From Deltaproteobacteria bacterium (GTDB lineage Bacteria; Bdellovibrionota_B; Oligoflexia; Oligoflexales; CAIYRB01), in contig VGTI01000002.1 in the NCBI GenBank assembly GCA_016874735.1, forward strand, positions 9,501 to 73,500: a DNA stretch of 64,000 bases. The letters run 5' to 3'. The notes under the pieces were generated by a model. It was not told where the DNA came from and ran no database searches. It saw only the letters and a program-made list of their open reading frames with translations. Shown here one piece after another: positions 11,941 through 38,068 of this stretch (the first letter of the stretch is position 1; every line of letters begins with the position of its first letter). The position numbers and the translations under genes were made by a program.

Positions 11941-13980
11941 TTAGTTCAAAGTCTCTGCAACGATCTCCGCTATGTCTTTCACCACCACTGCATCACCTTT
12001 GCCTTCGGCTTTGACTCCATCGGTAAGCATCGTCATACAGAACGGACACGCCGTTGCCACTGTACTCGCACCGGTGGCTATTGCTTCTTTGGCCCTATTG
12101 ATATTGATACGCGTACCATGGTGTTCTTCTAACCACATGCGGCCACCACCGGCCCCACAGCAGAAGCCTTGCTCTTTATGCCGCGGCATCTCTTTGAGTT
12201 CAACCTTTGGCAAGGCTTTCAGTGCATCACGTGGCTCTTCATAAACCTCGTTATGACGCCCAAGGTAACAGGAATCGTGATACGTCACCTGTGACAGCTC
12301 CGACGGCACCTGCTGAGCTTTGATTTTACCCTGCTTGCTTAGATCTGAGATCAATTCACTGTGATGGACGACATCGACGTTGACGCCAAAATCTGGATAC
12401 TCGTTCTTCAAGGTGTTGAAACAGTGCGGGCATCCCGTGACCACTTTTTTCACTTGGTAACGTTTGAAGGTCTCAACGTTGGCTTCAATTTGCATCCGCG
12501 CTAGGTATTCGTTACCAAGACGTCGTGCAGTGTCACCGTTGCACTGCTCCTCGGTCCCAAGAATCGAGAAGCTAACCCCGGCGGTCTGCATGATCTTCGC
12601 GATCGAGCGAGACACTTTTTTGTAGCGCTCGTCGTAAGATCCGGCACATCCCACCCAGAATAGATATTCGACATCGCTCTTTTCAGCCATGGTGGTGATA
12701 TTTTGCCCCTTGGCCCAGTCGCCGCGGGTCGACGGATCCATTGCCCAAGGGGATGAGCTAGTTTCCAGACTCTTAAACGTGTTAGCGAGCTCTGCCGGGA
12801 ATGCACCCTCAGTTAATGTGAGATAGCGCCGCATACCAACAATAGAGGGGATGTGCTCGATATATAGAGGACACGCCTCCATACACGCGCCGCAGGTGGT
12901 ACATGACCAGAGTTCATCTGGAGTCACGATGGCTCCCTGCTCACCGATCAGAGGCGTCCTTTGATCCTCAGGGGTACCCGCAGCCACCTCGGCAACAGCC
13001 TTCTTAAGGTGCTTCATGATCAGGCGCGGATCAAGTGGCTTGCCGGTATTGGTAGCCGGGCACTGAGCCGTACAACGCCCACACTCGACGCAAGTGATGC
13101 CGTCTAATAACTGCTTCCAAGTGAAGTCTTTGACCTTGCCGATGCCGAAGCTTTCAGCATTCTCGTCGAACTCCATCGATTTGATTCTACCGCGCGCACC
13201 TAAGCTGCGCAGAAACATAGTCGGCCAAACCCAAATAAAATGCTGATGTTTAGACGACGGCAAGAAAAACATGAAGGAGAAAAGCGTGAGGCAATGGAGC
13301 CACCATACGCTTTTTGAAAAAACGGCCCAACCTTCGCCACTGCTTATGCCGAAAAGCCCGCCTACAGCACCGGCGAAAGACCGTGAGACTGCCAAGGGTC
13401 CCGCTGGAAGTCCACCGTCCCCCTCTACGAAGGTCTTAGCTCCCATGTAAACTAGGGAGGTCACCACAAGAGCAAGTATGAAACCCAGTACTAAATAAGC
13501 GTCAACCCGTGACGGTTTTTCAAGTTGAGACAGCCGCCATGGCTTAAGGATCAAGCGACGCCCGTAAGCCCACACTATGGCAAACGCGACTACGGCGTTG
13601 CCGATATCCTGGGTCCAGAGGTAGGCATTATAGAACTCACCGTCACCTAAGAATAGGCGAAACGAGAAAGCATCGAAGATACCGTGGATCAGCGTCTCTC
13701 CCGTACCGATCGTGACTACAACAAAACCAAGGAAGATCATGAAATGCATGATCGCGGGCCAGAAATCTTTGAGCATCTTGGGCTGTAAAAAACCACCACG
13801 GAGCATGCCAAGGATCCGCTCAGCTACCCGATCCGTCCTGACGTCATCAACGCCCGCACCGACGTGTATGGTCTGCCAAATACGTCGCAGATTGACAGCC
13901 AGATAACCAAGAGCACCGAACAGAAGTACAGCAAAGATCAAATTGGGAAGCAGAGCCACAATCATCTCCTGATAATCCAT
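11941..13980 (-). CDS. membrane-bound Fe-S oxidoreductase: multi-TM domain fused to an HdrD/DsrK/GlpC-like module
   Basis: About 300 aa with 5-6 TM helices carrying His residues (IMHFMIF, WWLHC, SKHQHF). Then two ferredoxin motifs ([24 protein letters not shown]) and Cys-rich CCG-type domains ([16 protein letters not shown]). The start at 13980 (MDYQEM) is chosen to avoid overlapping the upstream gene and is uncertain. Confidence 0.7.
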
Positions 13981-14059
13981 GCAACGCAAAACCCCAAAAT
14001 ACCACAACTTATCGAGGCCGACCAGCGGTACTGGCGCTCGGGGACGCGGCTGCAGAGCG

Positions 14060-14380
14060 CTAGCGGCGACGTAAAGGCCGGAGGCTTTGTCTGGCTTTGA
14101 ACAGCATGGCATGGGTCTCGTATTCGACATGAGCCCGCACCGCATGGAACTTTATATCGGTGAGTTCCCTGACTAGCTGCTCGTAGCGCACATCAGTGAG
14201 TGCCAGGCGTTCGCCTTTGGCTGCTGACCGGCATCGTCTGACCCACTCTCCCTTGAGCTCCAGGTAGCGCGACGCAAACAGTGCATTGAGACGCTTAGCT
14301 ACCTGGCGCGAGGTTAACGCCGTTTGGGCGAAAGACTGAATTAGTTGCGTGAGCCGCTCGGCCGGCATTCTGAGATTCAT
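14060..14380 (-). CDS. hypothetical small basic helical protein (106 aa)
   Basis: ORF with an AGGGAG RBS. It is Arg/Lys-rich and probably helical. No motif recognised. Confidence 0.4.
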
Positions 14381-14398: not shown

Positions 14399-16825
14399 CT
14401 ACCGTATCACATGGCGCAGATAATTCTCTAGAAGAGCGCGATTTTCATCGTCATATTGGGATGTTTGGACCTCTTCCAGGATGTCTTCTCGGTAGCGTCG
14501 ATCGACCTGGTATTCACGTTTGATCTCAAGATCCCCGCCGACAATTGACTGGCCGTAGTAGTTGTCCCCTGTAACGCGGCGTCGACGCCCGCGGTTGCGA
14601 CGCTTCTGCTGTGACTGCTGGGCAGCGCTATCAGCCTGCCTAAGTAACCGACCCGCCAGGTCAGCGCCGGCCTCAGCAGAGCGGTAATCGGCGGCACCAC
14701 CGGCTTCGATCACTTGCTCCATGGCCTCGGCGGCAGCTTGAATACGCGTAGCGGCATTGGGCGACAAATTTTTGAGTTGTCCCTCGAGTGCGCGTGTACC
14801 CTTCAAATTGGCATTCTGCTTGGATCGAGTGCCCGGCCATTGATCGCTCAGTTGATCCTGCTCGCGCTCGCTAGCTCGGTCTAATTCGGTGGAAATTTCG
14901 CCTTGGACCTTTTGCAGCTCCTTGAGAGTATCGCGCGCCGAAGCCAAACCCTGCTGCCTCGATTTATCATCCTCCTCACGCATCTTATCTTCCAACGCCT
15001 CAAGTTCCTGGAGCCAGCTGCGGTACTCAGTGACCGTGCGGGACAAAACCGTCAATTGCTCGCTCTGCGCCGCGGCAGTAGCCTTCTTGTCGAGGCTCTG
15101 TATTTGATTCATGGACTTATGAAAAGGCCTCTGACCGCTGATACGCGGCCAGGTTGGTGGCACAAAATCTGGCCCAAGCCGCGCCACACGCAAGCGCCAT
15201 CGTTCCTCACGCCCCCCGAGAAAATTTTGCATGCGTCCAATAACCGTCGCGAGGGCCAAAGGCCGCCGTGCCATAGGTGTCTCAAGTTGATGCGAAAGGG
15301 CACGGGCAGCCACAAAGAAGTCGCGGTCACGCTCTCGATCATCGAGAATTTCATGCTCAAATAAAAAATCATTTAGAGACTGGCTGAGTTCAAATAACTT
15401 GTCAGCCTCAGGGTCCGCTCCTAATTCCTCCGCCAAAGTTGCAAATCTGCGCATCTGCATCCGATCTAGACCGTCGAAAAAAGGCGACCTCTCGGATTCA
15501 TCGACGGCTTTTTTTGCAAGATTTACTGCCTCGGGCGGGATCGTCGCAAGCTGCTTACCCGCCATACCGTCGACCTGGGCCTTCAACTCACGCAAGGTCC
15601 CAAGTGCTTTACGATAACGCCCATAGGCACTTGCTACATGAAGTCTCAAGGGTTCACTGCGCCCTGTCAGTGGTGTCGGTAGGGCACGATCTACTGCTTC
15701 GGCGACAATTTCAATGTCCGCTATATCGTTATCTACATAGGTTTCCAAAATGATGCGGTAGTCTGTTGATAACTCGAATTTATCCTCGGTCATAACATTA
15801 GCAACCAGCTCTTTGGCCACTTTCTGTTCGTTTTTTATGAGAAGGTGTACGGTCTGCAGCGGATTTTCTCCGTGCACCTTGATACGCAAAGGGAGCGGTT
15901 GATCATCTGGCCACGGATCCTCGATTTGGCCGGCCACCTGTAGGTCAACCTTCGGAACGGGAAGCTGCCGCACCTTGAGACTTGCCAGTGGTGTGTTGCG
16001 GTTGAGATTAGGTAGAAAAAGCTGCACATCCTCGGAAACAGCAAACGACGTGATAAAAAGATTATTAACGTCTCCCCCACCAGCACTGCGAACTGACGAC
16101 ATTTGGAATGTCTGGAATATAGCCCCTGCATCCGCAGATGACGCCACGGTGCGACGCAACTCGATGACCGGAGCTTCAACGCCGCCAGCATGTACCTTTA
16201 ACTCAATCAAATTTGTTGCCAACAGCTCCAAAGCGACGGTCTTGCCTGAAGCTAGTTGCCAAATCCTCTCAGTTGGATCGTTTGCGGCACCCTGGAGGAT
16301 AGTCAAAGTCGCACTCTGCTGCAAACTGTCAACTGCTTGAGACACCTGTCGCAACGCAACTTTGAGACTCGGAGCCGCGCGGGGCACCAGTAGTACCGCG
16401 AGGGTTATAGGAACAACAAGTCCACTTGCGGCGATCAAAAGCCGCCGCCATTCCGCCCGGCGAAACGCCATAAAGTCGCGGCGTATCACCTCTTGCCATG
16501 GGACCGCCAGATCGGCGTCCGCGGCGGCCACGCGCAGAGGGATTTTCAAGTCGCTACCGTAACGCATATCAAGGTACAAACAAAATTCAGGTACCGTGGC
16601 CTCTTGCCAAACGAAAGCGGACCGGCGCAGGATCAGCACCAGGCAACCCGCAACCAGACCAAGAACCACCTGCTCCCCTTCAGCGCCTGGCTTAACTAAG
16701 GACCAACTTGCCATAACTACGCCAGCCAGCGATATCGCGGCAGCGAGGCTGATCAAGCGATTTAAAAGCGCAAACTGCCACTTAATTCGATTACGCTGAT
16801 CAATCGCCTCATTAAGTGTCTCCAC
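14399..16825 (-). CDS. large membrane-anchored protein with a charged coiled-coil C-terminal half (DUF4175-like?)
   Basis: GTG start with an AAAGGAA RBS. Three N-terminal TM segments are followed by a long Glu/Arg/Gln-rich helical region, then an RRNRGRRRR tract and a ...RALLENYLRHVIR tail. The DUF4175 resemblance is from memory only. Confidence 0.55.
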   Translation of the reverse strand: METLNEAIDQRNRIKWQFALLNRLISLAAAISLAGVVMASWSLVKPGAEGEQVVLGLVAGCLVLILRRSAFVWQEATVPEFCLYLDMRYGSDLKIPLRVAAADADLAVPWQEVIRRDFMAFRRAEWRRLLIAASGLVVPITLAVLLVPRAAPSLKVALRQVSQAVDSLQQSATLTILQGAANDPTERIWQLASGKTVALELLATNLIELKVHAGGVEAPVIELRRTVASSADAGAIFQTFQMSSVRSAGGGDVNNLFITSFAVSEDVQLFLPNLNRNTPLASLKVRQLPVPKVDLQVAGQIEDPWPDDQPLPLRIKVHGENPLQTVHLLIKNEQKVAKELVANVMTEDKFELSTDYRIILETYVDNDIADIEIVAEAVDRALPTPLTGRSEPLRLHVASAYGRYRKALGTLRELKAQVDGMAGKQLATIPPEAVNLAKKAVDESERSPFFDGLDRMQMRRFATLAEELGADPEADKLFELSQSLNDFLFEHEILDDRERDRDFFVAARALSHQLETPMARRPLALATVIGRMQNFLGGREERWRLRVARLGPDFVPPTWPRISGQRPFHKSMNQIQSLDKKATAAAQSEQLTVLSRTVTEYRSWLQELEALEDKMREEDDKSRQQGLASARDTLKELQKVQGEISTELDRASEREQDQLSDQWPGTRSKQNANLKGTRALEGQLKNLSPNAATRIQAAAEAMEQVIEAGGAADYRSAEAGADLAGRLLRQADSAAQQSQQKRRNRGRRRRVTGDNYYGQSIVGGDLEIKREYQVDRRYREDILEEVQTSQYDDENRALLENYLRHVIR

Positions 16826-16850: not shown

Positions 16851-17828
16851 TTAAGTAAACTCTACCGACGGTTCTCGCCGACGCACTACGACGCGTCCGA
16901 GCCACCCCAAGATGAGCGCCACGACGTCTTCGCGCGTATCATCAGCCTCAGTCAGCACACCATGAGTGGTATTCTTTAAATCCAAAATCTGAACATTATG
17001 GTCGCCGTGAAGCGCCGCGGATTTTTTCAAATGCTGATAGGAGCAAATTTGATCTTGTTCGGGACACAGTATTAGCACGGATCCGTCGAATTCGATAAAC
17101 CGCGTCTCAGCTCTTTTCATTGCCAGAATAACTTCGCTAGCCAGAGCCGCAGTTATTCCTGAAAATCTTGTATTGAGCTCGCCGTCCTCTCGACTCATTG
17201 GGCGGCGATTGACACGCCCACTTGTAAAACGCGGCACAAAGGGTTGCCAGACCCTTGCGGTCGGCAATACATCGGCCAGTAACCGCAAAATAAGGGCCTG
17301 CAATCCCCCAACAGCCGATTGCAGCTCTAGACAGGGCGCACTAAGCACCGCTCCAGAGCAAAAGGCTGGGAACCGCTTAGTGAACTCCATCACCATGAGC
17401 GCACCCACGCCCTGCCCAATAATGACCGGACCCTGCCCTCCGGCTCGGTGGCGCGCCCAGGCGACGACTTGCAACAGATCCTGAACTAATACGGCGAAAC
17501 TAGGAGCGTGACCTAGCTGCCATCCTGAGCGCCCATGGCCACGCCAGTCATAGGTATAAACTGAGTAGCCTTGACTAAAAAAGCTTTGCGCCGCTTGATG
17601 ATAGCAATCACCATGCTCGCCTAGGTCATGGACTAAGACCAACGGAGGCTTATCAAGATTCTTTTGTGCGAGCGATCGCACGTAGACGGTAGTCCCGTAA
17701 TGGTCTACTGGGAGATGAATAATGTGCTCGGGATTATCTGTGGTCTCGTCGCCAACGGGAAACGGCGGTAGGGCGGAGGCGATCGCCCGCTCTGTATTGG
17801 AATTTTCAGGGGCCGAGGCCTGTTCCAC
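16851..17828 (-). CDS. alpha/beta-hydrolase fold protein (lysophospholipase/monoglyceride-lipase-like) with Gly at the nucleophile position
   Basis: The oxyanion region LVLVHDLGEHGDCYH matches the HG..eH..rY pattern. The nucleophile elbow reads IIGQGVGA instead of GHSMGG. Asp (CPEQDQI) and His (TTHGVL) candidates are retained. Confidence 0.7.
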   Translation of the reverse strand: MEQASAPENSNTERAIASALPPFPVGDETTDNPEHIIHLPVDHYGTTVYVRSLAQKNLDKPPLVLVHDLGEHGDCYHQAAQSFFSQGYSVYTYDWRGHGRSGWQLGHAPSFAVLVQDLLQVVAWARHRAGGQGPVIIGQGVGALMVMEFTKRFPAFCSGAVLSAPCLELQSAVGGLQALILRLLADVLPTARVWQPFVPRFTSGRVNRRPMSREDGELNTRFSGITAALASEVILAMKRAETRFIEFDGSVLILCPEQDQICSYQHLKKSAALHGDHNVQILDLKNTTHGVLTEADDTREDVVALILGWLGRVVVRRREPSVEFT

Positions 17829-17951: not shown

Positions 17952-20900
17952 TTAGCGGCTTCGCCCACCACTAAATGAGAACTCATTATGGCAGCTCTCA
18001 CATCGCTCAAATCCAGGGAGCTTGTGATCGGGGAAAACTACCCGCAGAGCATCCTGTAAATGGCAGCTAGCGCAATCTGTCGACTTCCCTAAGTAAACAT
18101 TATTGGCATGACACTCGGTACAGGCAACTAAACGATGCGCGCCACGCAACGGGAACGATGTCATTGAGTGTCGATAGCGGTTAACATTCCAGAAATGTTG
18201 AGAATGACACTCGCCGCAGGCAGGCAGCATACCAAGGTGGGCATCGTCTTTCTGGTGACACACCTTACAGTCGCCACCGATGCCGGTGAGTTTTCGTCCA
18301 TCTTTGTGACACTCGCTGCATTCGAGTAGATAGTGAGTCCCCGACAACACAAAGTCTTTGTGAAAGTCGCCAGTTTTTTCCCACCCCGTCGCCACGTGGC
18401 ACTGGGAACACTGTTTACCAAACCGGCCCTTATGGGGATCCTCGTGACACAGCGCGCAATCTTTAGTCGTCAGATCGGTAAATATGAATTGACCCTTTTT
18501 GTGTTTTGATGGCTCAGGAAACTTTTTAGTAGTTGGCTTATGACATTCGGCACACTTCACGCTCGTATGCTTGCCTTTGAGAGGGTACCGCGACTTATTG
18601 TGATCAAACTTAATTTGACTATAGAAATGCACCTGGCTGTGGCACGCCCGACATGGTTCTTGGGAGAACTTTTGATGAAACTGGTCACGATGCGGGTTGG
18701 CGTGACACACCTCGCAGAAACCAGTAGATTGATGCCCCATTTGATACAATGATGCTGGCTTTGGTGGCTTGGTCGGAAGAAACTTATTCGTCTTTGTATG
18801 ACACTGAGCGCAATCCTCTTTAATGGCCACGTGCGCGCCGATGATTTGAAAGTCCGTTAAACTATGGTTAAACGGCAGACGCTTGGCAAAATCTTCCGTG
18901 GTGTGACACTCGCGGCAAGCCTTATTGGCAAACTTGGAACTGAACTGGTCTTTGTGCACATTAGCATGACAACTTTCGCAGAATCCGGTTTCCTCATGAT
19001 CAAACATGTACTTGCCAGCTGGTTTGGGCGGCTTAGTCGGAAGCATTTTCTTTGTCTTATAGTGACACTCAACACAGTCATTCTTTATCTTGGTGTGAGC
19101 GCCATTTATCTTGAATTTTGTAATACTGTGGTTAAACGGGCTTAGATCATCGAACTTTTTTGCATTGTGACAGCGGCCACAAGTGTCATTATCGGTAGAT
19201 TCATCGAATTGCCCTTTGTGGACGTTTTTGTGGCATTCGATACAGTATCCCTCCCGCTCGTGACCAAAAATATACTTACCCGCAGGGTGAGGCGGCTTCA
19301 CAGGCAACATTTTATTGGTAGGGATGTGACACTTGACACACTGCCGCGCAATTTTTTGATGAGAATCAACTAGCTTGTAGTCAGTTTTGTCGTGGTTATA
19401 GTCAAAAATATCTTTAAACTTGTTGCTGTTATGACATTCCGCGCAGGATTGCTGCTGATATTTTGGTTTGAACTGATCTTTATGCGGATATTTATGGCAC
19501 TCGACGCAGAACTGAACCTTCTCCGTTGGAAATCTATAAACTTGTTTGCCATCCCGCAAATGACAGTCGTTACAGCGAACGGGGACATGACTGCCAGTGA
19601 GGGGAAAGCGAGTCATCGTATTGTGATTGAAACCATCGCCCTGCTTCTGATTCAGACTCTTCCAATCGTTGGTATTGTGACAAGCCGTACACTTACTGGT
19701 CTTAAACACCGGATTCTCAGCCGGATCGTGCGGACTCTTATGACAGGTCTCGCAGGTTTTTGTGACCATTTCCGGAAACTGGTAATCCCTCGGTGTATTG
19801 GGAACAGCTCCACCAGCTAATGGTTTATGGCACTCAAAGCAGGCCACTCCAATATGCTTTCCCGTTAGAGGGTAAGTAGTGTCTACATTGTGATTGAATT
19901 TAACAGCTGACTTCCACGCCACATCGTTATGGCAGGTCTGGCATTGAGTCAGCTGTCCTAGCTTAGGTGAACTTTCACTCCTGAACCCATGGTAATCTTG
20001 GTGACAACTCGAACACTGCTGACTTAAACCAGTAAAATTGAAGTCCTTAAGCTTAGTTGCTCCACCACTTTGTTTGTGACAGGCTTGGCACGGCTCTTTA
20101 GCGTGGGCCCCTTTTAGGACAAATCCCGTGATATCGTGATTGAAATGGGTAATCTGCCAACGATCCTGGTTATGGCAACTCTCACATGCACCGCCGCGGA
20201 ATTTGCCAGCTAAATTATCTTTGTGAAAATCGGCATGGCAAGTCCGACAACCCAGACGGGAGAGTTCAGGAAAGTCATACTTGGCAGGTCCACCTTTGCC
20301 CTTGGGATTATGACATTCGGCACAACTCACTTTGCTATGGGCGCCAATCAAAGCATAGCCGGTTTCCTTTTTATGATCGAAATAGGTCGCCTGCTTCCAC
20401 GACTTGTCATTATGGCAAGTATTACAGTCCTTAACCGCCCATTTTGGCGGGAAGCTGTGTATGTCATCTTTTTTATGACAGCTAACACACGATGAATCGG
20501 TACCAAAAAATCGCGTGTCATTGCGGAAAACCGGTTTTTCCGTTCGTTTTTCTGTGTGGCACTTCACGCAGTCGACACCGGCATGTCCGCCGTTTAGGGG
20601 GAACCCAGTACGCCGGTGATCAAACCCCTTCTGCTTAAACGCTACCGCATTGTAGTTGCGCCCCTTATGATCTGAGTGACAGGAGACACAGGTTCCCTTG
20701 GCCAGAGCGTGAAAGCCCGTTTTACGGTCAATCGATTTTTTGATCTCCTTGTGACAGTCGAGACACTTACTATCGGGCACACCTTTTCCGGCATCATGAC
20801 ATTTAAGGCACCCACCGTGCTCCCACTCCTTGTGCCCCTCCATCAGTGGACCAGGCGCTAGCAGCGAATTTATGAGGCCCTCCCCAGACGTGTCAGCTGC

Positions 20901-20969
20901 TCGAAGCTGCGCCGCAGGACCAGCTGTCGCTGCTATCAGAAGTAGAAATTTCAGAAGCAATAGTCTCAA
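17952..20969 (-). CDS. 36-heme c-type cytochrome (c3/c7-like multiheme polymer), secreted
   Basis: I counted 36 CxxCH motifs in 1005 aa. Sec signal MRLLLLKFLLLIAATAGPAAQLRA. The apparent TTG start overlaps the upstream stop (TTGA). His-rich spacers are typical of bis-His hemes. Confidence 0.9.
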   Translation of the reverse strand: MRLLLLKFLLLIAATAGPAAQLRAADTSGEGLINSLLAPGPLMEGHKEWEHGGCLKCHDAGKGVPDSKCLDCHKEIKKSIDRKTGFHALAKGTCVSCHSDHKGRNYNAVAFKQKGFDHRRTGFPLNGGHAGVDCVKCHTEKRTEKPVFRNDTRFFGTDSSCVSCHKKDDIHSFPPKWAVKDCNTCHNDKSWKQATYFDHKKETGYALIGAHSKVSCAECHNPKGKGGPAKYDFPELSRLGCRTCHADFHKDNLAGKFRGGACESCHNQDRWQITHFNHDITGFVLKGAHAKEPCQACHKQSGGATKLKDFNFTGLSQQCSSCHQDYHGFRSESSPKLGQLTQCQTCHNDVAWKSAVKFNHNVDTTYPLTGKHIGVACFECHKPLAGGAVPNTPRDYQFPEMVTKTCETCHKSPHDPAENPVFKTSKCTACHNTNDWKSLNQKQGDGFNHNTMTRFPLTGSHVPVRCNDCHLRDGKQVYRFPTEKVQFCVECHKYPHKDQFKPKYQQQSCAECHNSNKFKDIFDYNHDKTDYKLVDSHQKIARQCVKCHIPTNKMLPVKPPHPAGKYIFGHEREGYCIECHKNVHKGQFDESTDNDTCGRCHNAKKFDDLSPFNHSITKFKINGAHTKIKNDCVECHYKTKKMLPTKPPKPAGKYMFDHEETGFCESCHANVHKDQFSSKFANKACRECHTTEDFAKRLPFNHSLTDFQIIGAHVAIKEDCAQCHTKTNKFLPTKPPKPASLYQMGHQSTGFCEVCHANPHRDQFHQKFSQEPCRACHSQVHFYSQIKFDHNKSRYPLKGKHTSVKCAECHKPTTKKFPEPSKHKKGQFIFTDLTTKDCALCHEDPHKGRFGKQCSQCHVATGWEKTGDFHKDFVLSGTHYLLECSECHKDGRKLTGIGGDCKVCHQKDDAHLGMLPACGECHSQHFWNVNRYRHSMTSFPLRGAHRLVACTECHANNVYLGKSTDCASCHLQDALRVVFPDHKLPGFERCESCHNEFSFSGGRSR
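18654..19445 (-). repeat. three tandem 88-aa (264-nt) triheme coding modules inside the 36-heme cytochrome gene
   Basis: Residues 509-596, 597-684 and 685-772 align colinearly: C..CH-N..KF.D..-FNH....F...GAH..I...C..CH.KT.K.LPTKPPKPAGKY.F.HE..G.C..CH.N.H..QF. A more diverged fourth copy follows at residues 773-853. Confidence 0.8.
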
Positions 20970-22387
20970 AGGATACGCTCTAGCTTGGGTGTTTCATCGC
21001 GGATAGGGGTTGCCTGCCTGGTGTTTATTCTATAACCAATCGACAAAAGTGCGCTATATACCGACGCCTGTTCATCCTGCGCCGCCTCTAAGACGACACT
21101 GCCGATCAGATCCCGTGTCAGTAGCATGCTCATATCTGTATCAACGACTAAGGGGTGCAATGAGCTACGTCTGTCGATACTCTGCGCTGTATACTGGATT
21201 GAAGCCGAGACTGAACTTTCCCGCCAATAATACGTAGCGCCGCTGCGAAGTATTGAATCCTGGCTGAGAAAATTGCGCTTGAAACCAGCCCCAGCAAATG
21301 CCGTCAAGTGACTATTCAATAGCCCTGTGGTCACGATGCGCCCACCTAGGCCGTACTGATTCTTTCCGTCGACATCACGACGTCCGTACGAAGTATCACC
21401 CACAATAGCAAACTGATTAGAAAGCTTGTAGCGCAGGTCACCCCCTAATTGACTGTATCCACTGATAGGTAACCGGTCTAGAAGATCTCGAAACTGCTGA
21501 TAGCTCCGCAGATCCAGGTGAAACAAATTGGCCGAGCCAGATAGACGGGATGTCCAAGGCTGATAAAGTGAGGCCCAGAGATTCCGCACCTGTACTGAGG
21601 GCTGAACTATGATGTGCGATATGTAGGTTAGACGTTGCCCACTTGCTCTTTGACGGAATGCATTTGCATACCAAAACATGTAGTTACTGGCGGCATCCGC
21701 TTCTGTGGGGGCAGTTTCGTTACCAACCAGAATGCTGCCACCACGCCGTACTGCAGGATTATCAAAGGATCCAACCCCTTCCAGCGATTTGCGGCCAACC
21801 AAACTAGTCGACGCATAGGTGTTACTTTCACCACTCTTGGAGCTTTCCTCGTATACCGCATAGCCACCTATCTGCCGCTCTTCGAGACCGATTTTAAGAG
21901 ACCTTCCACCTCGATGCTCTGGATAGAGACCACCAAACAGCGCCAAACGTGTTGACTGATTAAGTCGCAAACCGGCCTCAGCCCCGTCATTCCCCAGTAC
22001 CACAGCATCGGCAGCAACAAAGCGTCCAATAGACCAGAAAACACCGGTTCTCGTCGCAGGGGACCGAAGAACCAATTGTCTAAGCTGCACATCATTACTG
22101 GCGGCCATTCGTCCTAATGCGGGTTCGATACGACCAAAGGGATCATACTGGTTCCGCAGATCTACTGTAAATTCGAGCCCACTACCCGTGAGGTTAGTCA
22201 CATCGACATAAGCGCGTCCTATACCCAGAAACCGGTCGTTTGCCACGGGAGCAATGCCGGTATTCTTTAAATCCTCTTTTATCGAGTATAAGCCGAGATT
22301 GAAGCGCGCAGAGTAATCATAAGCAGTAGCTACCGGTGCTGCCAGCATCGACAAAATTATCAGAATATTTCGCAGCCATCGTTTCAT
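20966..22387 (-). CDS. putative outer-membrane beta-barrel (porin-like) protein
   Basis: Signal peptide MKRWLRNILIILSMLAAPVATA. It has no Cys and no hydrophobic helices. Short alternating-polarity segments rich in Gly/Tyr/Arg/Ser run throughout. It sits between two cytochrome genes and overlaps the downstream gene by 4 nt. Confidence 0.6.
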   Translation of the reverse strand: MKRWLRNILIILSMLAAPVATAYDYSARFNLGLYSIKEDLKNTGIAPVANDRFLGIGRAYVDVTNLTGSGLEFTVDLRNQYDPFGRIEPALGRMAASNDVQLRQLVLRSPATRTGVFWSIGRFVAADAVVLGNDGAEAGLRLNQSTRLALFGGLYPEHRGGRSLKIGLEERQIGGYAVYEESSKSGESNTYASTSLVGRKSLEGVGSFDNPAVRRGGSILVGNETAPTEADAASNYMFWYANAFRQRASGQRLTYISHIIVQPSVQVRNLWASLYQPWTSRLSGSANLFHLDLRSYQQFRDLLDRLPISGYSQLGGDLRYKLSNQFAIVGDTSYGRRDVDGKNQYGLGGRIVTTGLLNSHLTAFAGAGFKRNFLSQDSILRSGATYYWRESSVSASIQYTAQSIDRRSSLHPLVVDTDMSMLLTRDLIGSVVLEAAQDEQASVYSALLSIGYRINTRQATPIRDETPKLERIL

Positions 22388-22430
22388 TTGTTACTTTTGA
22401 AGCTCGAGCTCAAGAGATCAGTGGGAAGCA

Positions 22431-22823
22431 TTACTCAGCCGTCCCCAGTTTTGAGAAACTTTTGGTGTTATGACAACCAACGCAATCTACCTTTTGTGGA
22501 TGAGGTTCTGCTGGTCGTCTATAGGCGTGACATTTATTACATGACGATGGTTTAGGATCATGGTCGTAGCTATTGACCGGCACCCAACCCGACCGATCAT
22601 CTTTTGGTACATGACACTCCTGACACTCACCTCCACCGCCATGAACCTCGTCATCAATTGGAGCCGGTCGCTGGGAAATATGACAGGTAGAACATGTGTT
22701 ATCGGCGAGAAACGCACCGTGCTCGAATGATGGTCTCACCGCTTGTTGATCACCAATAGTCGGAGTTCTCGGAACACACCCAAAAGCAAAAAAATACGTA
22801 AGAAACGGCAAAAGCTGCTTCAT
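22431..22823 (-). CDS. small tetraheme c-type cytochrome, possible lipoprotein
   Basis: Four CxxCH motifs (CSTCH, CQECH, CNKCH, CVGCH) in 130 aa. The signal ends ...FFAFGC, which is lipobox-like. ATGA overlap with the upstream gene. Confidence 0.85.
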   Translation of the reverse strand: MKQLLPFLTYFFAFGCVPRTPTIGDQQAVRPSFEHGAFLADNTCSTCHISQRPAPIDDEVHGGGGECQECHVPKDDRSGWVPVNSYDHDPKPSSCNKCHAYRRPAEPHPQKVDCVGCHNTKSFSKLGTAE

Positions 22824-24172
22824 GTCTTTCTCAACCTCTCACCGAATTTTTTATCCATCTTCACGCCAAGAGATGCGAGAAATTCCTTAGGAACTTCACT
22901 TCCGGCGAAGATAAATACGAAAGAATTATTCATTTTTATCGGACTGCCGCCATGATTGACTATGATGTGACTTTGATGAATGGACTTTACTTGACTCTCG
23001 AAAATCACCCAGATCTGACCATGGAGTGCTAGCGCGTTTACGTTGTCAATGTTTTCCTGATTTGCCCTGTTGAACTGACGCGATCTGACAATCAGCGACA
23101 CACGATTGCGTAGCCTTGGCTGTGCTAGTTGAACCGCTGCCTCCAATGCGGCATTACCACCACCGATGACCGCAATATCTTGTTTCTGGTACTGCTCTGG
23201 TTCCAAAAGGTTGTAGGTGACCTTCGGTAAATTCTCGCCCGGAACGTTCAGTCTCCTCGGTGTACCTCGGACACCTGTGGCAAGAATGACCTTTTTTGCC
23301 GTCAATGACCCTAGAGATGTCTTGACCTGGAAGATCTCTCCATATTTCGAAAAACCCTCGAATTTACACCCCTCTTTGATCCTTAGTGAGTACCGTCTCC
23401 GGAGGTGCGTCCAGTATTGCAATAGCTCCTCTTTGGAGACTTTATTGTTGGGAAATTCCATAGTGCCCACCAAGGGTAGGTCTGCGGGTTGCGTCATCAC
23501 GATTTTTTGACGAGGAAAGTTATATATCGTTCCACCTACACTATTTTGTTCAATACATAGGTAATTGGCCCGAGCCTGAGTCGCAGCCAGTGATGCCGCT
23601 AATCCAGCGGTGCCAGCGCCCACGATCACGAGATCAAAATCAGCTCGCGCGTTTCCCGGCAGTTTTGCCAGTGCATGCATGGCGGCGGTGCGTCCTTGTC
23701 TAACGGCATTTCTAATTAGACCCATACCCCCCAGCTCGCCGGCGATATAGACGCCCTTAACATTGGTCTCGTAGTTGCTCGTAATGCGCGGCAGATCCAT
23801 ACCGCGACGCTTGGTGCCAAAAACTAAATCGATGGCCCCAAAGGGACAGGCGATTTCGCACTCACCGTGCCCCACACACATGTTGGGCTGCACCAAGACT
23901 GCTTTGTGATTAATGACCTTAAGTATTTCGCCTTCAGGGCAGGCCTTCACACACGCTGTACATCCCGTGCACCGGGTCGCATCGATTTCCGGATGTAATG
24001 TGGTTGGTTCAATGAGATCATTTTCCACGCTTGATTTGTAGGCTTCGGCTCCGTCTGCGTACAGTTTGCGCCGTCGTCTGATACTGACGAATGCGACACC
24101 AGCGAGCAACAGCAGACCAAGCGGCGTAAGCAACTTAGCGCCGATAACTGAAATTGTATTCCATGTGCTCAT
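22820..24172 (-). CDS. membrane-anchored NAD(P)/FAD-dependent oxidoreductase with a 2x[4Fe-4S] ferredoxin domain
   Basis: The N-terminal TM segment is followed by RRRRK, which places the catalytic part in the cytoplasm. Ferredoxin motifs CTGCTACVKACP and CVGHGECEIACP. Dinucleotide folds VIVGAGTAGLAAS and IAVIGGGNAALEAA. TrxR/YpdA-like overall. Confidence 0.8.
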   Translation of the reverse strand: MSTWNTISVIGAKLLTPLGLLLLAGVAFVSIRRRRKLYADGAEAYKSSVENDLIEPTTLHPEIDATRCTGCTACVKACPEGEILKVINHKAVLVQPNMCVGHGECEIACPFGAIDLVFGTKRRGMDLPRITSNYETNVKGVYIAGELGGMGLIRNAVRQGRTAAMHALAKLPGNARADFDLVIVGAGTAGLAASLAATQARANYLCIEQNSVGGTIYNFPRQKIVMTQPADLPLVGTMEFPNNKVSKEELLQYWTHLRRRYSLRIKEGCKFEGFSKYGEIFQVKTSLGSLTAKKVILATGVRGTPRRLNVPGENLPKVTYNLLEPEQYQKQDIAVIGGGNAALEAAVQLAQPRLRNRVSLIVRSRQFNRANQENIDNVNALALHGQIWVIFESQVKSIHQSHIIVNHGGSPIKMNNSFVFIFAGSEVPKEFLASLGVKMDKKFGERLRKT

Positions 24173-24243: not shown

Positions 24244-25029
24244 CTAGGTCTTATTCGGTGATTTTGATCTAAATTTTTGTCTTGCGAATTGCCTAAGCTC
24301 ATCGATGATCACGACTAAAAACGCGACATTAGATGCATAACGCCAGAATAGACGCCGCGGATCTTTCAGAATCCGGTATATCCATTCAAGCCCCCAATTC
24401 TGCATCCATTTTGGCGCTCTTTTTAGTCTTCCAGCAGCGAACTCAATAGCTGCACCGACCCCAAGAGCAACATCGACGTGAAGGTCCTTAGCATATTTTG
24501 CGATCCAAACTTCTTGCTTAGGACTACCTAAACCGACGAACAAAATATCCGGCTTCAGCGCATTAATTTCGGCGATTGCGCGTCCGTTTTCATCTAGATC
24601 ACTTTCAAATCCGTATGGTGGGGCATAGTAGCCGACCTTTAAAGCGGCGGCCCGTGAACGCAACTGATCGGCTGCTGCCTCCGCAGCCCCAGGTGGCCCC
24701 CCAAAAAGGAAAATGGAAAGATTGGCGCGAGCTGCAGCGACTGCAAGTGCGGGCAACAGATCGGCACCCGTGACGCGTTCGGGAAGCGGTTTACCTTGTA
24801 GGCGTGACAACCAAACTATAGGCATACCGTCGGCCAGTGAGAGCACGGCACCACGATATATTGCCGCCAGACTACTCGACCTGCGACACCTCAAGACGTG
24901 ATCGACATTTGGCGTCACGACAAGACGACAATCGCCCGCACCAATGACTGCAAGTTCAATAATTCTCTGTACAGCCTGATCCAGGTTCAGGGGATCAAAG
25001 GAGAGCGAGGCTAGGTTGACCCGCTGCAT
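24244..25029 (-). CDS. WecB/TagA/CpsF-family (GT26) glycosyltransferase
   Basis: The start is taken at MQRVNLASLSFDPL (ATG 25029). Family-like blocks: VVTPNVDHV, ADGMPIVW, LFGGPPGAAEAA, ILFVGLGSPKQE, IYRILKDPRRLFWRY. The upstream extension to 25224 would overlap the divergent gene. Confidence 0.75.
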   Translation of the reverse strand: MQRVNLASLSFDPLNLDQAVQRIIELAVIGAGDCRLVVTPNVDHVLRCRRSSSLAAIYRGAVLSLADGMPIVWLSRLQGKPLPERVTGADLLPALAVAAARANLSIFLFGGPPGAAEAAADQLRSRAAALKVGYYAPPYGFESDLDENGRAIAEINALKPDILFVGLGSPKQEVWIAKYAKDLHVDVALGVGAAIEFAAGRLKRAPKWMQNWGLEWIYRILKDPRRLFWRYASNVAFLVVIIDELRQFARQKFRSKSPNKT

Positions 25030-25062
25030 AAAATTGCCCCCAAAATAAAGTTTTGTTTTGCA

Positions 25063-25071
25063 TGATACAAT
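25063..25071 (+). promoter_or_regulatory. candidate extended -10 promoter element (TGATACAAT) for the GT4 gene
   Basis: TGnTACAAT lies in the divergent intergenic region. It is consistent with GTG 25109 (AGGA 8 nt upstream) being the real start. No good -35 element. Confidence 0.3.
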
Positions 25072-25108
25072 ATGGACACCATACTCGTTCCGCCTCAGGA
25101 TCCACCAC

Positions 25109-26296
25109 GTGGCCAATATCCTCATCATATCAGCTTTGCAAATTTTTCCCGTTGTTTCTGGTGGCCAGCAGCGGACAGCATCGATTGCACTCGAGCTTGC
25201 AAAAGCCGGCCACCATGTGCGCATTTATTCGCTAATTGGGCGCAAACGCGACATGCTAAGGTTTACGGGCGAAACCGAGGCAACCATCAGCGCCAACTTG
25301 TATGAATTTGTTTGCAGGCCTTTCACCTTGTGGGCGAAGGCTATGGTTGCCTATAAGCTTGGTCTCCCACCCCTATGGGCAAAGGAGCTTATCGAGCAAC
25401 CTGATACGACGCTCAATCTGTGGATTGCCCAATCAGAGATAATCATCCATGATTTCCCCTATACATTTGCCGCCCTACGCGCACACCGTAGACTGCAAAT
25501 CTTAAACAGCCACAATATCGAGCATCAGCTTTTTCGCACCAAAGATGGGAGGGATAGCAAACTCTCCGAAAGCGTCCGAAAACTTGAGTATACCGCTATC
25601 GCTGGTGTCGCCTTGGTGGCTTGTGCATCACTAGACGAAGTCACAGTATTTTCCGCAGCTTTTCCTAATAAAGAATTTATACATATTCCAAACAGCATCA
25701 AACCCAAAAATCAGAATCCCCCTCCCAAAAAGCAGACCAGTACTATGCGTCAGGATCTTGGAATTAATGATGATGCAACCGTTCTGATCTTCCCGGCAAG
25801 TCGTTATGGTCCCAACATCGAGGGAATGGATTTCCTAAGGAATTTCAGCATTAAGCACGAGTCTTTTCTACGAAAAGAGCGCATCATGATTCTAGTTGTA
25901 GGCAGTGTCGCAACGGGCCAGCACAGACTTGGGCAATTCTTAACCACAGGTCCGGTTTGTGACATAGAACCATATTTTCATGTTGCGGATTGGGGTATCA
26001 ATCCTATCTTCTATGGCTCCGGAACTAGCATTAAAGTTGCAGAATTTATCGATTTTGACTTACCCATACTGACTACCGAGGTTGGATCACGCGGATTTAC
26101 CTTCGTCGACCAAAGCACTGCCATTTTTTTTACAAAAGATAATCTTCTCGAAAAACTCACAATGTTACCAAAAGATCTGCATCTACTGAGGAAGATGCGT
26201 CAGGAGGCCCGCATGGCTAACGCGCACTTTCTCGATCCGACTGCAGCAGTGGCGCCGTTACTGAGAGCTATCAGTGGCTGGAACCCACTCTCATGA
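25109..26296 (+). CDS. GT4-family (GT-B) glycosyltransferase
   Basis: N-terminal ILIISALQIFPVVSGGQQRTASIALELAKAGHHVRIYS matches the GT4 N-terminal pattern. A C-terminal E-x7-E-like block is present (KVAEFIDFDLPILTTEVGSRG). The ORF opens at ATG 25058. GTG 25109 is preferred, but the start is uncertain. Confidence 0.7.
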   Translation: MANILIISALQIFPVVSGGQQRTASIALELAKAGHHVRIYSLIGRKRDMLRFTGETEATISANLYEFVCRPFTLWAKAMVAYKLGLPPLWAKELIEQPDTTLNLWIAQSEIIIHDFPYTFAALRAHRRLQILNSHNIEHQLFRTKDGRDSKLSESVRKLEYTAIAGVALVACASLDEVTVFSAAFPNKEFIHIPNSIKPKNQNPPPKKQTSTMRQDLGINDDATVLIFPASRYGPNIEGMDFLRNFSIKHESFLRKERIMILVVGSVATGQHRLGQFLTTGPVCDIEPYFHVADWGINPIFYGSGTSIKVAEFIDFDLPILTTEVGSRGFTFVDQSTAIFFTKDNLLEKLTMLPKDLHLLRKMRQEARMANAHFLDPTAAVAPLLRAISGWNPLS

Positions 26297-26409
26297 CACA
26301 TGATTTAAGGTCGTGCTAGTATTGAAGTATCTCTCACTAGTCCCGCGGATTACCCTCACATCTCATGCTACTAACAATCATAAAAAGACTAATTTCTCGC
26401 CTGGGTGTA

Positions 26410-26793
26410 ATGCCTGCCATCGGCAACGATCTGGTTTTCGTGCCGGATGTTGCCTCGTCTCACCATCAGTTTGGTGAACGGTATTTAAAATTTATTTTTA
26501 CTGACAACGAGATTCTCGACTGCATGCACAAGGATGGTAGTTATTCCTACACCAGCCTAGCCGCCCGCATTGCAGCCAAAGAATCTGTGATGAAGTTACT
26601 TAAACCGGCGCGGGATCAACTTCTACCTTGGCAATCGATAGAGGTCCGGCGCGACCCCACTGGTGCGGCCGATCTAATTTTGCATCGAGAAGCCAAGGCC
26701 ATGGCAGAGAAACAAAGTATTATCTCGCTTTCGCTCTCGCTTGCTCATGAACACCAATATGCCTCCGCGTTAGTATTAGCGACTCAAATCTGA
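26410..26793 (+). CDS. AcpS-type 4'-phosphopantetheinyl transferase
   Basis: MPAIGNDLVFVPDV (GxD), FTDNEILDC, ARIAAKESVMKLL and LSLSLAHEHQYASALVLA match holo-ACP-synthase blocks. The ORF opens at 26365 and the start is uncertain. Confidence 0.7.
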   Translation: MPAIGNDLVFVPDVASSHHQFGERYLKFIFTDNEILDCMHKDGSYSYTSLAARIAAKESVMKLLKPARDQLLPWQSIEVRRDPTGAADLILHREAKAMAEKQSIISLSLSLAHEHQYASALVLATQI

Positions 26794-26840
26794 TCATCGA
26801 TCTTAAGATTTATTTTTATCCAAGCGAGGAGTTTACTGCC

Positions 26841-27077
26841 ATGCAAGATAAGATTCGAAAGATTCTAAAGGATCATGGACGTCTCGCAGTTGATGCCAAT
26901 TCACTGGCTGAAACCACTGATCTTTACCAGTCGGGAATGACGTCACATGCCAGTGTTAACGTCATGCTAGCTCTCGAAGGAGAGTTTGATGTCGAATTTC
27001 CAGACCATATGTTAAAACGCAGTGTTTTTGAGAGTATTGCCTCTATTACGAGCGCGATTAATCAGATTAAGAACTGA
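26841..27077 (+). CDS. dedicated acyl/aminoacyl carrier protein (78 aa)
   Basis: Size, acidic helical character and the DLYQSGMTSHASVNVMLALEGEFDVEF block fit a carrier protein, with a Ser at the start of helix 2. GAGGAG RBS upstream. Confidence 0.8.
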   Translation: MQDKIRKILKDHGRLAVDANSLAETTDLYQSGMTSHASVNVMLALEGEFDVEFPDHMLKRSVFESIASITSAINQIKN

Positions 27078-27111
27078 CTCGCCAAAAACCTGCCAACCTG
27101 GAGACCTAACT

Positions 27112-28281
27112 TTGGTCTTACCCTCACATTCACCCTTGGTGGAACTTGCGCGTACTGTCGGTGCGGGTACGGCGGCGAATTTTGCTGATCAAGTTGACGC
27201 CGATGCTCGCTTTCCCCACGAAGCGGTCACGCAACTAAGAGCGCATCGCCTGCTCAGTTGCTATGTTCCCCAGAGTTTGGGTGGCCATGGGGCATCACTG
27301 AATGAGCTCGCATTTATGTGCGAGGAGCTAGGAAAACACTGCAGTGCCACGGCCATGGTTTTTGCCATGCATCAGATTCAAGTAGCTTGCTTGGTGCATC
27401 ATTGTCACGATGACAGACATCTCAAGGCATATCTCGCTCAACTCACACAAAATCAACACCTAATCGGGTCTGTAACGTCAGAGGTCGGAGTCGGTGGCGA
27501 TATGCGGTCGAGTGTTTGTGCCGTCGATGTAAATGGCGATGAATTCACCTTAAACAAGAACTCCACGACGTCATCCTACGGAGCTCAGGCCGACGACCTA
27601 CTAGTGACTGCAAGGACCTCTCCGACAGCTCCAAGTAGCGATCAATCGCTGGTGTTACTTGCCAAGGGGCAATTCACCATGGAACAAACTGGCAACTGGA
27701 ACCCCATGGGTATGCGCGGAACCGGGAGCGCGCCCTTTAAACTGACGGGCAAAGGGCTCACTTCTCAAATCATGAGCACCCCGTTCGCGACTATTTCTGC
27801 TCGTACCATGGTACCGGTCTCTCACCTATTGTGGGCCGCGACTTGGGTTGGTAACGCCGTTGCCTCAATGACGCGGGTCAAAAGCTTCATCAAACAGCAA
27901 GCTAGATCGAATCCGGGCAGCCTACCGCCTACGGCACTCCGCATGGCTGAATTGGCTCCGAGTATACAGCTCCTGCGAACCTCGTATCGTTATCTTCTTA
28001 CCGAATACGAGAGTATCAACGCAGATCCGACAAGATACGACGAGCTCTCAACCATCGGATATGCCGTTCGGATGAATAACCTTAAACTTTCTGGCTCACA
28101 ACTTATCGTCGATATTGCCAATAAGGCACTTCAAATTTGTGGTGTCGCTGGCTACAAAAACGACTCCAAATTCGCCATGGGACGCATCCTGAGAGACGCA
28201 CATGCTGCCGCTCTGATGGTCGGAAATGATCGCATACTTAACTCAAATGCCAACATGCTTATGATTCTCAAGGGTGATTGA
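27112..28281 (+). CDS. acyl-CoA-dehydrogenase-fold flavoprotein, probably acting on a carrier-protein thioester
   Basis: ACAD-like blocks: AMVFAMHQ, GSVTSEVGVGGDMRS, QICGVAGYKNDSKFAMGRILRDAHAAALMVGNDRI. TTG 27112 follows GGAGA by 8 nt. The longer ORF from 27022 would overlap the carrier-protein gene. Confidence 0.75.
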   Translation: MVLPSHSPLVELARTVGAGTAANFADQVDADARFPHEAVTQLRAHRLLSCYVPQSLGGHGASLNELAFMCEELGKHCSATAMVFAMHQIQVACLVHHCHDDRHLKAYLAQLTQNQHLIGSVTSEVGVGGDMRSSVCAVDVNGDEFTLNKNSTTSSYGAQADDLLVTARTSPTAPSSDQSLVLLAKGQFTMEQTGNWNPMGMRGTGSAPFKLTGKGLTSQIMSTPFATISARTMVPVSHLLWAATWVGNAVASMTRVKSFIKQQARSNPGSLPPTALRMAELAPSIQLLRTSYRYLLTEYESINADPTRYDELSTIGYAVRMNNLKLSGSQLIVDIANKALQICGVAGYKNDSKFAMGRILRDAHAAALMVGNDRILNSNANMLMILKGD

Positions 28282-28297
28282 TCAGGAGATACTTGCT

Positions 28298-32711: not shown

Positions 32712-32718
32712 GAGACCC

Positions 32719-34545: not shown

Positions 34546-34549
34546 ATCT

Positions 34550-38054: not shown

Positions 38055-38068
38055 ATTCTTACCTTATA

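Follow-up and report, generated by a model that had tools for sequence, protein, structure and literature searches.

To our knowledge, the outer-membrane electron conduits described so far (Mtr, Pcc/Ext, Mto/Pio and Cyc2) use the quinone pool and have been defined in metal-respiring or iron-oxidising bacteria. The Pcc (OmaB/OmbB/OmcB) and Ext (ExtABCD, ExtEFG and ExtHIJKL) systems of Geobacter combine a porin-like barrel of ~450 aa with a multiheme cytochrome in the periplasm and with small cytochromes that are lipoproteins. A comparable set of genes is present in a 64,000-nucleotide stretch of contig VGTI01000002.1 (positions 9,501 to 73,500; assembly GCA_016874735.1, Deltaproteobacteria bacterium, Oligoflexales), which is referred to below as the window. 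Four minus-strand genes at 17952-24172 of the window form a module that is, on balance, likely to encode the greater part of a porin-cytochrome-type conduit for electrons across the envelope, as judged from the encoded proteins. By its gene logic it appears to be a porin-cytochrome system with a NOX-like input, a function that we infer from the genes. The open reading frame (ORF) table and the translations agree with a preliminary description of this DNA as to the positions and strand of the four ORFs:

22820..24172, minus strand: gene for a membrane-tethered Fe-S flavoprotein, 450 aa
22431..22823, minus strand: gene for a tetraheme c3/c7-like cytochrome, a lipoprotein candidate, 130 aa
20966..22387, minus strand: gene for a predicted outer-membrane beta-barrel of an unannotated family, 473 aa
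17952..20969, minus strand: gene for a 36-heme c-type cytochrome, 1005 aa, with a TTG start

As in Shewanella MtrCAB and in MtoAB/PioAB, the barrel is encoded together with a Sec-exported multiheme cytochrome that could act as a wire (plus a lipoprotein cytochrome). The heme density of this cytochrome, about 28 aa per heme, resembles that of MtrA, and the protein has a partial, sub-threshold match to the MtrA/DmsE decaheme family (TIGR03508, residues 133-267, 78.3 bits against a cut-off of 192.2). However, each component differs from its Mtr counterpart. The barrel has 22 strands in an AlphaFold2 model instead of the 26 of MtrB, and the 473-aa protein gives no match to the MtrB_PioB profile (PF11854). 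The periplasmic partner carries 36 hemes in c7-type triheme units and is not decaheme like MtrA, the lipoprotein partner has four hemes where MtrC has 10, and the input would be an NAD(P)H-linked Fe-S flavoprotein, joined in relatives by a putative heme-b protein, rather than quinol oxidation by CymA.

No sequence-level link to the Geobacter Pcc/Ext systems was detected, and the Ext-related NCBIfam matches are far below cut-off (15 bits against 200 for ExtN/ExtO of the selenite/tellurite reduction operon). Compared with those systems, the periplasmic partner is three times larger, and the cytoplasmic flavoprotein is an integral, conserved member of the module. The preliminary description had drawn a parallel to porin-cytochrome gene logic while holding that the parts were different, with a 36-heme partner, a 4-heme lipoprotein and a flavoprotein rather than a quinol dehydrogenase. 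Both halves of this view stand. The barrel, the exported multiheme cytochrome and the lipoprotein cytochrome are conserved as a unit in relatives. A dedicated membrane-associated NAD(P)H dehydrogenase is, as here, encoded with the apparatus for extracellular electron transfer (EET) in the flavin-based locus of Listeria (Ndh2, EetAB, PplA), but that locus is Gram-positive, lacks cytochromes and a barrel, and depends on a special quinone and flavinylated PplA. By Pfam and NCBIfam cut-offs, the module lies outside the MtrB/PioB, MtrA/DmsE, MtrC/OmcA, TIGR04257, YpdA and TrxR families. Its most unusual part is the input through a flavoprotein and a heme-b protein.

Literature searches found no description of this module, in keeping with the earlier suggestion that it was undescribed. 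Matches to EET hidden Markov models (HMMs) have been mentioned in generic terms for metagenome-assembled genomes (MAGs) of Bacteriovoracia and Bdellovibrionia from lakes (bioRxiv 10.1101/2022.03.26.485925), and sequence-divergent clusters of porins and multiheme cytochromes, of a different kind, have been reported in Acidobacteriota and Verrucomicrobiota (bioRxiv 10.64898/2026.05.27.727921).

Gene products of the module

The arrangement of the genes was read directly from the sequence and is as first described. The flavoprotein and small-cytochrome genes share an ATGA overlap at 22820-22823, a 43-nt gap (22388-22430) separates the small-cytochrome gene from the barrel gene, and the latter, immediately upstream of the large-cytochrome gene, overlaps it by TTGA at 20966-20969. 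The earlier counts of 4 and 36 CxxCH motifs in the small and large cytochromes were reproduced, while the flavoprotein and the barrel have none. As only one further CxxCH occurs among all other ORFs of at least 60 aa in the window, the heme density of the module is not a matter of chance. A promoter and terminator scan of the module gave counts equal to the shuffled background, with no signal above it; operon status is therefore based on the gene overlaps and the conserved gene order.

All 72 cysteines of the large cytochrome lie within CxxCH motifs, and the 36 motifs fall into 12 consecutive triplets, corresponding to 12 triheme c7-like units. Over 1005 aa, there are ~28 residues per heme, as noted in the preliminary description. 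Window proteins were scanned against Pfam at E <= 0.01, and NCBIfam matches were judged by curated cut-offs. Cytochrome_C7 (PF14522) matched the large cytochrome in eight stretches spanning the whole protein (E = 5e-39), and further matches were to Cytochrom_c3_2, Cytochrom_CIII and the MtrC/MtrF domain II/IV family. Scores for TIGR03507 (MtrC/OmcA; 39.4 bits against a cut-off of 209.3, with no match of this model to the small cytochrome) and TIGR04257 (nanowire_3heme; 16.4 bits against 40) were below cut-off, and a phmmer search of the 36-heme protein against the PDB gave nothing at E <= 0.001.

Seven 36-heme homologues (50-100% identity) share 37 invariant His residues outside the motifs. 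Each unit has three conserved distal His, except unit 2, which has four, and no Met is conserved among the homologues. All 36 hemes are therefore potentially bis-His, and the protein would thus serve for electron transfer or storage and not for catalysis. Such a pattern suits a wire or capacitor in which every heme is bis-His and does not suit an enzyme. Among the 120 best homologues, the heme count is a multiple of three in 115 (30 hemes in 45 proteins, 33 in 51 and 36 in 16), hence the length of this cytochrome appears to evolve in triheme steps. The number of 36 hemes is not exceptional, as relatives carry 54 to 70. Related clusters with 54, 64, 67, 69 and 70 CxxCH were seen at L012:9001-14052, L054:5909-10066, P0072, P0101 and P0114.

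The triheme c7-like chain on one polypeptide is a feature shared with the c7-type nanowire cytochromes of Geobacter. GSU1996, GSU0592 (12 hemes) and GSU2210 (27 hemes) are Sec-exported chains of triheme c7-like domains, and each triheme domain of GSU1996 has one His-Met heme (PMC10138318). In contrast to GSU1996, the ligand pattern of the large cytochrome is three distal His per unit with no conserved Met, and, unlike the Geobacter c7 polymers, the protein is always paired with a barrel gene. Its signal is of the Sec type and includes no conserved lipobox. The signal peptides of the homologues in L001 (5823-8858) and L002 (3316-6333) include an extra, lipobox-like Cys (VTSC and LASC). Lipidation was rejected, since hydrophobic residues run on past this Cys and the window protein does not have it.

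The barrel protein is without a match in Pfam (E <= 0.01) or NCBIfam. Its close relatives are few, with seven retrieved by a word-indexed search and three found among species genomes, and a profile search through the word index with an 80-sequence barrel alignment, which returned only eight proteins, was not used to delimit the family. An exhaustive profile search defined a discrete family with 166 representatives at 50% identity. Almost all of them are 430-490 aa long, and nothing links them to a named family. A first AlphaFold2 model, built on a 7-sequence alignment, was poor (pLDDT 58) and was discarded. With 80 family sequences, the model reached a pLDDT of 89.8 and a pTM of 0.83. It shows 22 long beta strands, a signal helix at the N-terminus and a single disordered loop (207-231). 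When this model was compared with the PDB by Foldseek, only outer-membrane barrels were matched (probability 1.00), including OccK/OprD porins, FimD/PapC ushers, chitoporins and FadL, with low TM-scores of 0.4-0.5, as expected at differing strand numbers.

The 473-aa protein is, with confidence, predicted to be a 22-strand outer-membrane beta-barrel, and the candidate of the preliminary description is upheld by the strand count and the Foldseek matches. From the strand number alone (R = b/(2 sin(pi/n) cos alpha), with S = n+2), the backbone diameter is estimated at about 4 nm. Two of the outcomes that had been named as speaking against a conduit, namely that the protein is not a barrel or is too small, are at odds with the 22 strands and with this estimate. 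TonB-dependent transporters also have 22 strands and enclose a plug of about 150 residues. The barrel protein contains no cysteine and has an AxA-type signal end (A20-T-A22, followed by Y23) that is invariant among close homologues, and its last strand ends in GYRF in the family consensus, resembling a beta-signal. A conserved tail, residues 456-473, follows the last strand (PxRDGAPPxGxL in the family consensus and TPIRDETPKLERIL in the window protein). A tail beyond a beta-signal-like last strand is unusual for outer-membrane proteins, and it could be a periplasmic docking element.

In the small cytochrome, CxxCH motifs are located at residues 44, 67, 95 and 114, and there are eight His in total. 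The protein matches Pfam Cytochrom_CIII, and its best PDB match is the GSU1996-type entry 3oue. A lipobox (FAFG-C16) ends the signal peptide. The window protein and its counterparts in L001, L002, L003, L007, L008, L010 and L068 all have a Cys in this position with polar residues after it, and Asp is never found at +2 in the window protein and the relatives read. The protein is hence a lipoprotein candidate with a conserved lipobox Cys, much as the lipoprotein-like cytochrome of the preliminary description. Its size varies between relatives from two to about 24 hemes, with two in L007, four in the window and 21 in L008. The N-terminus of the 21-heme protein of L008 aligns with the window protein at 37% identity. 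The L011 operon lacks the small lipoprotein cytochrome.

The flavoprotein comprises the following elements:

24077..24157, minus strand: single transmembrane helix, residues about 6-32, followed by RRRRK; predicted N-out/C-in anchor (hydropathy scan)
23822..23995, minus strand: Fe-S domain, C68xxC71xxC74xxxC78P and C99xxH102xxC105xxxC109P (translation)
22847..23638, minus strand: FAD/NAD(P)H-binding domain, residues 179-442, without a redox-active CxxC (Pfam)

Pfam matches were to Pyr_redox_3 (2e-43), Pyr_redox_2 (3e-26) and Fer4 families. A Tat signal was considered and rejected, as the positive cluster comes after the hydrophobic stretch and no twin-arginine motif precedes the helix. Because of this layout, which is also found in the flavoprotein homologues read, the cofactor domains are placed in the cytoplasm. 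The hydropathy, the position of RRRRK and the Pfam domains are thus in accord with the cytoplasm-facing enzyme on a single transmembrane tether that had been proposed. Of the two [4Fe-4S] clusters proposed with it, one is canonical, but the second motif reads CxxHxxC in the translation and is not a four-Cys motif. The second Cys of this motif is replaced by His in every homologue read, and CVGHGxC is conserved in the flavoproteins of L001, L002, L007, L008, L012 and L068. The second cluster would accordingly be a His-ligated [4Fe-4S] or a [3Fe-4S] cluster.

The PDB sequences nearest to the flavoprotein are YpdA, TrxR and TrxR-type ferredoxin-NADP reductases. The scores for TIGR04018 (YpdA; 177.9 bits against a cut-off of 339.9) and TIGR01292 (thioredoxin reductase; 75 bits against 343) are below cut-off. 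The FAD motif, VGAGTAGLAAS, is without Cys; in YpdA/Bdr, the active-site Cys lies in this N-terminal motif. No CxxC was found outside the Fe-S motifs in the flavoprotein translation, and the only cysteines of the L008 homologue are the seven of the Fe-S motifs. Since there is no redox-active disulfide, the protein is best read as a TrxR-type NAD(P)H:ferredoxin reductase, and as a whole it looks like an NAD(P)H:ferredoxin-type reductase fused to a ferredoxin and pinned to the membrane. It is always present in the cluster and is the slowest-evolving member, with 50-60% identity where the barrel has 21-40%, and 70-85% in close relatives. A role as a thiol-disulfide reductase for cytochrome c maturation was rejected, given the lack of a redox-active Cys pair and of ResB/CcsA neighbours in loci other than that of L008, a Bdellovibrio-like MAG in which these system II genes lie between the flavoprotein gene and the four-His gene described below (L008:13845-17254).

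Distribution and a fifth gene in relatives

The four genes are collinear in L001, L002/L004, L005 and L006 at 54-88% identity, and also in L003, with no more than 31% identity for the barrel. The barrel and large-cytochrome genes adjoin or overlap in about 20 independent loci (the window, L001, L002, L003, L005, L006, L007, L008, L010, L011, the P0016 locus, L015, L018, L019, L023, L025-L028 and L068), and a large cytochrome accompanies the barrel family wherever the context of the barrel was read. The gene set is repeated around large-cytochrome homologues in L007, L008/L009, the P0016 locus, L010, L011 and L068. A lack of synteny elsewhere, which the preliminary description had named as a third refuting outcome, is therefore not what was observed. 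Of the large-cytochrome homologues, the named ones belong to Oligoflexus, Oligoflexales, Pseudobacteriovorax antillogorgiicola, Bdellovibrio-like MAGs and Bdellovibrionota. The carriers thus include the cultured genera Pseudobacteriovorax and Oligoflexus (phylum Bdellovibrionota), and the records closest to the window are MAGs from lakes. A distant version, L012, combines the flavoprotein with 23- and 69-heme cytochromes and a different barrel candidate, a lipoprotein of 551 aa. The latter also ends in GYRF.

The preliminary description had found no evident route for electrons across the inner membrane, and this is true of the window, which lacks a gene that fills the gap in relatives. In L007, L008, L010, L011, L012, L018, L068 and the P0016 locus, a polytopic membrane protein of 269-317 aa is encoded beside the flavoprotein. 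This fifth gene is carried by nearly all relatives, including the nearest outgroup. Its products make up an unannotated family, and giant multiheme cytochromes and the flavoprotein are almost always encoded beside it. Its positions are as follows:

L007:4043-4903: gene for the four-His membrane protein
L008:17231-18052, minus strand: gene for the four-His membrane protein
L010:4843-5703: gene for the four-His membrane protein
L011:6876-7685: gene for the four-His membrane protein
L012:16461-17414: gene for the four-His membrane protein
L068:5028-5891: gene for the four-His membrane protein

Four His (H96, H110, H262 and H276 in L010 numbering) are invariant in the five proteins compared. They form two pairs, each 14 residues apart, on two transmembrane helices as judged from the hydrophobic segments, within the motifs LD(F/W)HI...FH(S/C)NFK and FHxPF...IIHI. 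All five proteins gave a DUF4405 match (best E 7e-4), three gave a match to Ni_hydr_CYTB (0.035) and two to Ferric_reduct (best 0.0022). The matches are weak, and the families are all of His-ligated transmembrane heme-b proteins. The fifth-gene protein is thus a candidate di-heme b carrier across the inner membrane, as read from its His pattern and family similarity.

Experiments have shown that DUF4405 binds heme b by means of four central His (PMC11334425), and in Fre-MsrQ a cytosolic NAD(P)H reductase feeds a membrane protein with a ferric-reductase domain (PMC12525009). Like these systems, the input proposed here would consist of a cytoplasmic NAD(P)H flavoenzyme that feeds a His-ligated heme-b membrane protein and, through it, the periplasm. 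Unlike in Fre-MsrQ, the flavoenzyme is membrane-anchored and has two Fe-S clusters. Furthermore, the periplasmic acceptor would be a giant cytochrome c and not MsrP or a flavinylated protein, and the membrane partner is not in the window.

A metagenome scan seeded with the four-His protein alone returned 55 loci. Within the available flanks, the flavoprotein was present in ~25 of them, a cytochrome with at least three CxxCH (up to 54) in ~45 and the barrel family in 13. The split NOX-like input is inferred from these neighbours together with the family similarity of the four-His protein and the heme-b binding of DUF4405. A second layout, seen in metagenome contigs L037-L040, L049 and L053, comprises the four-His protein, a 22-24-heme cytochrome, a 10-heme cytochrome, a gap of a few kb and the flavoprotein; the barrel family studied here was not found in the flanks of these contigs.

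The nearest outgroups with 36-heme homologues, L068 (58% identity) and L018 (56%), carry the four-His gene. In the window clade, the inner-membrane step would either be encoded elsewhere in the genome or proceed via quinones. A membrane protein encoded at 11941-14145 of the window (minus strand), with about five transmembrane helices, a 4Fe-4S dicluster domain and two CCG domains, is HdrD/EtfD-like; its ORF has 734 codons, and the real start is probably M61, giving 672 aa as called in L001 and L002. It was considered as the missing link and rejected, as it is absent from L007, L008, L010, L011 and L068 and is syntenic only in close relatives with a wholly collinear neighbourhood. No multi-CxxCH ORF was found in the window beyond the module, hence there is no quinol-dehydrogenase cytochrome of the NapC/NirT, CbcL or ImcH type.

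Proposed electron path and alternative explanations

In the proposed conduit, electrons would enter from cytoplasmic NAD(P)H via FAD and pass to the Fe-S clusters held next to the membrane. In relatives, they would cross the inner membrane through the adjacent DUF4405/ferric-reductase-like four-His protein, presumed to bind two hemes b. The input would then be split and NOX-like, and it could do without the quinone pool. The large cytochrome would be the periplasmic wire, the counterpart of MtrA, OmaB and ExtA, with one end inserted into the barrel lumen, and the lipoprotein cytochrome, the counterpart of MtrC, OmcB and ExtC, would cap the barrel as the point of exchange with the outside. Taken together, the 40 low-spin hemes would in addition allow many electrons to be stored in the periplasm. 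The net direction is most likely outward, with reducing equivalents being dumped on extracellular acceptors such as Fe(III), Mn(IV) or humic material.

If true, this would add a new inner-membrane entry route to EET, extend electroactivity in lakes and soils to Bdellovibrionota, a phylum known mainly for predators and aerobes, and make available five genes as a compact cassette with which NAD(P)H-coupled export of electrons could be engineered. The cultured carriers Pseudobacteriovorax antillogorgiicola and Oligoflexus make the module directly testable.

Several observations weigh against a conduit of this kind. Cultured Bdellovibrionota are largely aerobic or predatory. The four-His gene was not found in the window or in L001-L006 by tblastn and a six-frame HMM search, nor in L069, which extends 9.6 kb past the right end of the window; for this organism, the proposed input path thus has a step missing. 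Where the gene is present, the matches of its product to DUF4405, Ferric_reduct and Ni_hydr_CYTB are all below the Pfam gathering scores. The Foldseek similarity of the barrel is generic at TM 0.4-0.5, so that it confirms the fold class and names no relative, and MtrB is not among the top 50 PDB matches. Finally, the alternation of hydrophobicity in the predicted strands was not significant in a crude test (1.58 versus 1.38 +/- 0.22 in shuffles).

A bolder form of the conduit was also considered, in which a self-contained, quinone-independent export chain spans the whole envelope, from NAD(P)H through FAD, two Fe-S clusters, a di-heme b protein, a single 30-36-heme polypeptide of sufficient length to bridge the periplasm and the 22-strand barrel to the surface lipoprotein cytochrome. 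Bdellovibrionota as a whole, predatory lineages among them, would share this chain, and they would use it for redox dumping, for extracellular reduction or for a prey- or oxygen-directed (NOX-like) function, and not for quinol-driven metal respiration. This form is regarded as possible but doubtful.

Alternatively, the module may be a periplasmic store only, in which a 36-heme capacitor receives electrons from the flavoprotein system and passes them to acceptors in the periplasm or the inner membrane. The barrel would then be an ordinary solute channel or an anchor, and no electrons would cross the outer membrane. The c7-type polymers GSU1996, GSU0592 and GSU2210 are periplasmic and have been proposed as capacitors (PMC10138318), and the Sec signal of the large cytochrome, without a conserved lipobox, is consistent with the same location. 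However, the barrel gene overlaps or adjoins the cytochrome gene in the ~20 loci across wide divergence, the barrel family (166 representatives) is accompanied by a large cytochrome wherever its context was read, and the outer-membrane lipoprotein cytochrome is conserved too. So tight a co-evolution with a cytochrome is unexpected for a simple porin, and a store of this kind is unlikely.

The absence of the four-His gene from the window and all four close relatives, in which the flavoprotein is intact and conserved, is accommodated by a quinone-coupled variant. The flavoprotein would then be a dedicated NDH-2-like NAD(P)H:quinone reductase, similar to Ndh2 of Listeria in flavin-based EET and in keeping with the position of its Fe-S domain directly after the membrane anchor, at the membrane surface, and an unlinked quinol oxidase would feed the cytochromes, the outer part being the same as in the proposed conduit. 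On the other hand, a quinone-site signature was not found in the flavoprotein, and the window has no quinol-dehydrogenase cytochrome of the types named above. As L068 and L018 keep the four-His gene adjoining the flavoprotein gene, a move of this gene to another part of the genome has at least the same likelihood, and the quinone-coupled variant is considered quite unlikely.

The resemblance of the input to NOX and Fre-MsrQ could also indicate a periplasmic or extracellular detoxification reductase, which would use NAD(P)H for the reduction of toxic metals, metalloids or oxidants, or for NOX-like production of extracellular superoxide, rather than for respiration. The carriers are largely aerobes, and the weak ExtN/ExtO matches come from a selenite/tellurite reduction operon. 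This explanation is improbable, given that those matches are far below cut-off, that no open-coordination catalytic heme is evident where distal His are conserved for all hemes, and that a catalytic subunit, whether a molybdo-subunit or another, is absent from the cluster.

Porin-cytochrome conduits can in principle run in either direction, and the barrel and large cytochrome of L011, without the lipoprotein cytochrome, have the two-component layout of MtoAB/PioAB; yet an inward conduit for electrons from extracellular Fe(II), reduced humics, a cathode or prey, with the flavoprotein as a regulator or maintenance reductase, is very improbable, because the constant partner is an NAD(P)H-linked flavoprotein, NAD(P)+ reduction by Fe(II)-level donors would be uphill with no energy-coupling subunit present, and the low potential typical of all-bis-His c7-type hemes fits electron export better.

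Genes flanking the module

In the window clade, a gene for a WecG-type glycosyltransferase is located directly upstream of the module, in the place taken by the four-His gene in relatives. It belongs to a polysaccharide-related block at 24244-39277 of the window, which adjoins the module on this side and includes, on both strands, genes for WecG/TagA-type, GT1 and GT2 glycosyltransferases, as well as for a 4'-phosphopantetheinyl transferase, an acyl-CoA-dehydrogenase-like protein, a DUF1839 protein, GH2-like and GH44 hydrolases and a Polysacc_synt flippase.

On the other side, the large-cytochrome gene is directly followed in the window clade by a gene for an alpha/beta hydrolase (Hydrolase_4/Abhydrolase_1; 16851-17828, minus strand). 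An alpha/beta hydrolase gene also follows the large-cytochrome gene in the distant Oligoflexus locus L010 (11960-13351), and its presence may be a coincidence or that of an accessory gene. Further downstream, 14399-16825 (minus strand) encodes an 808-aa protein with N-terminal transmembrane segments and a long charged region, probably a coiled coil, for which there was no Pfam match, and 14060-14380 (minus strand), after it, encodes a small protein of 106-109 aa. Conservation of these two genes downstream of the module is limited to the window clade.

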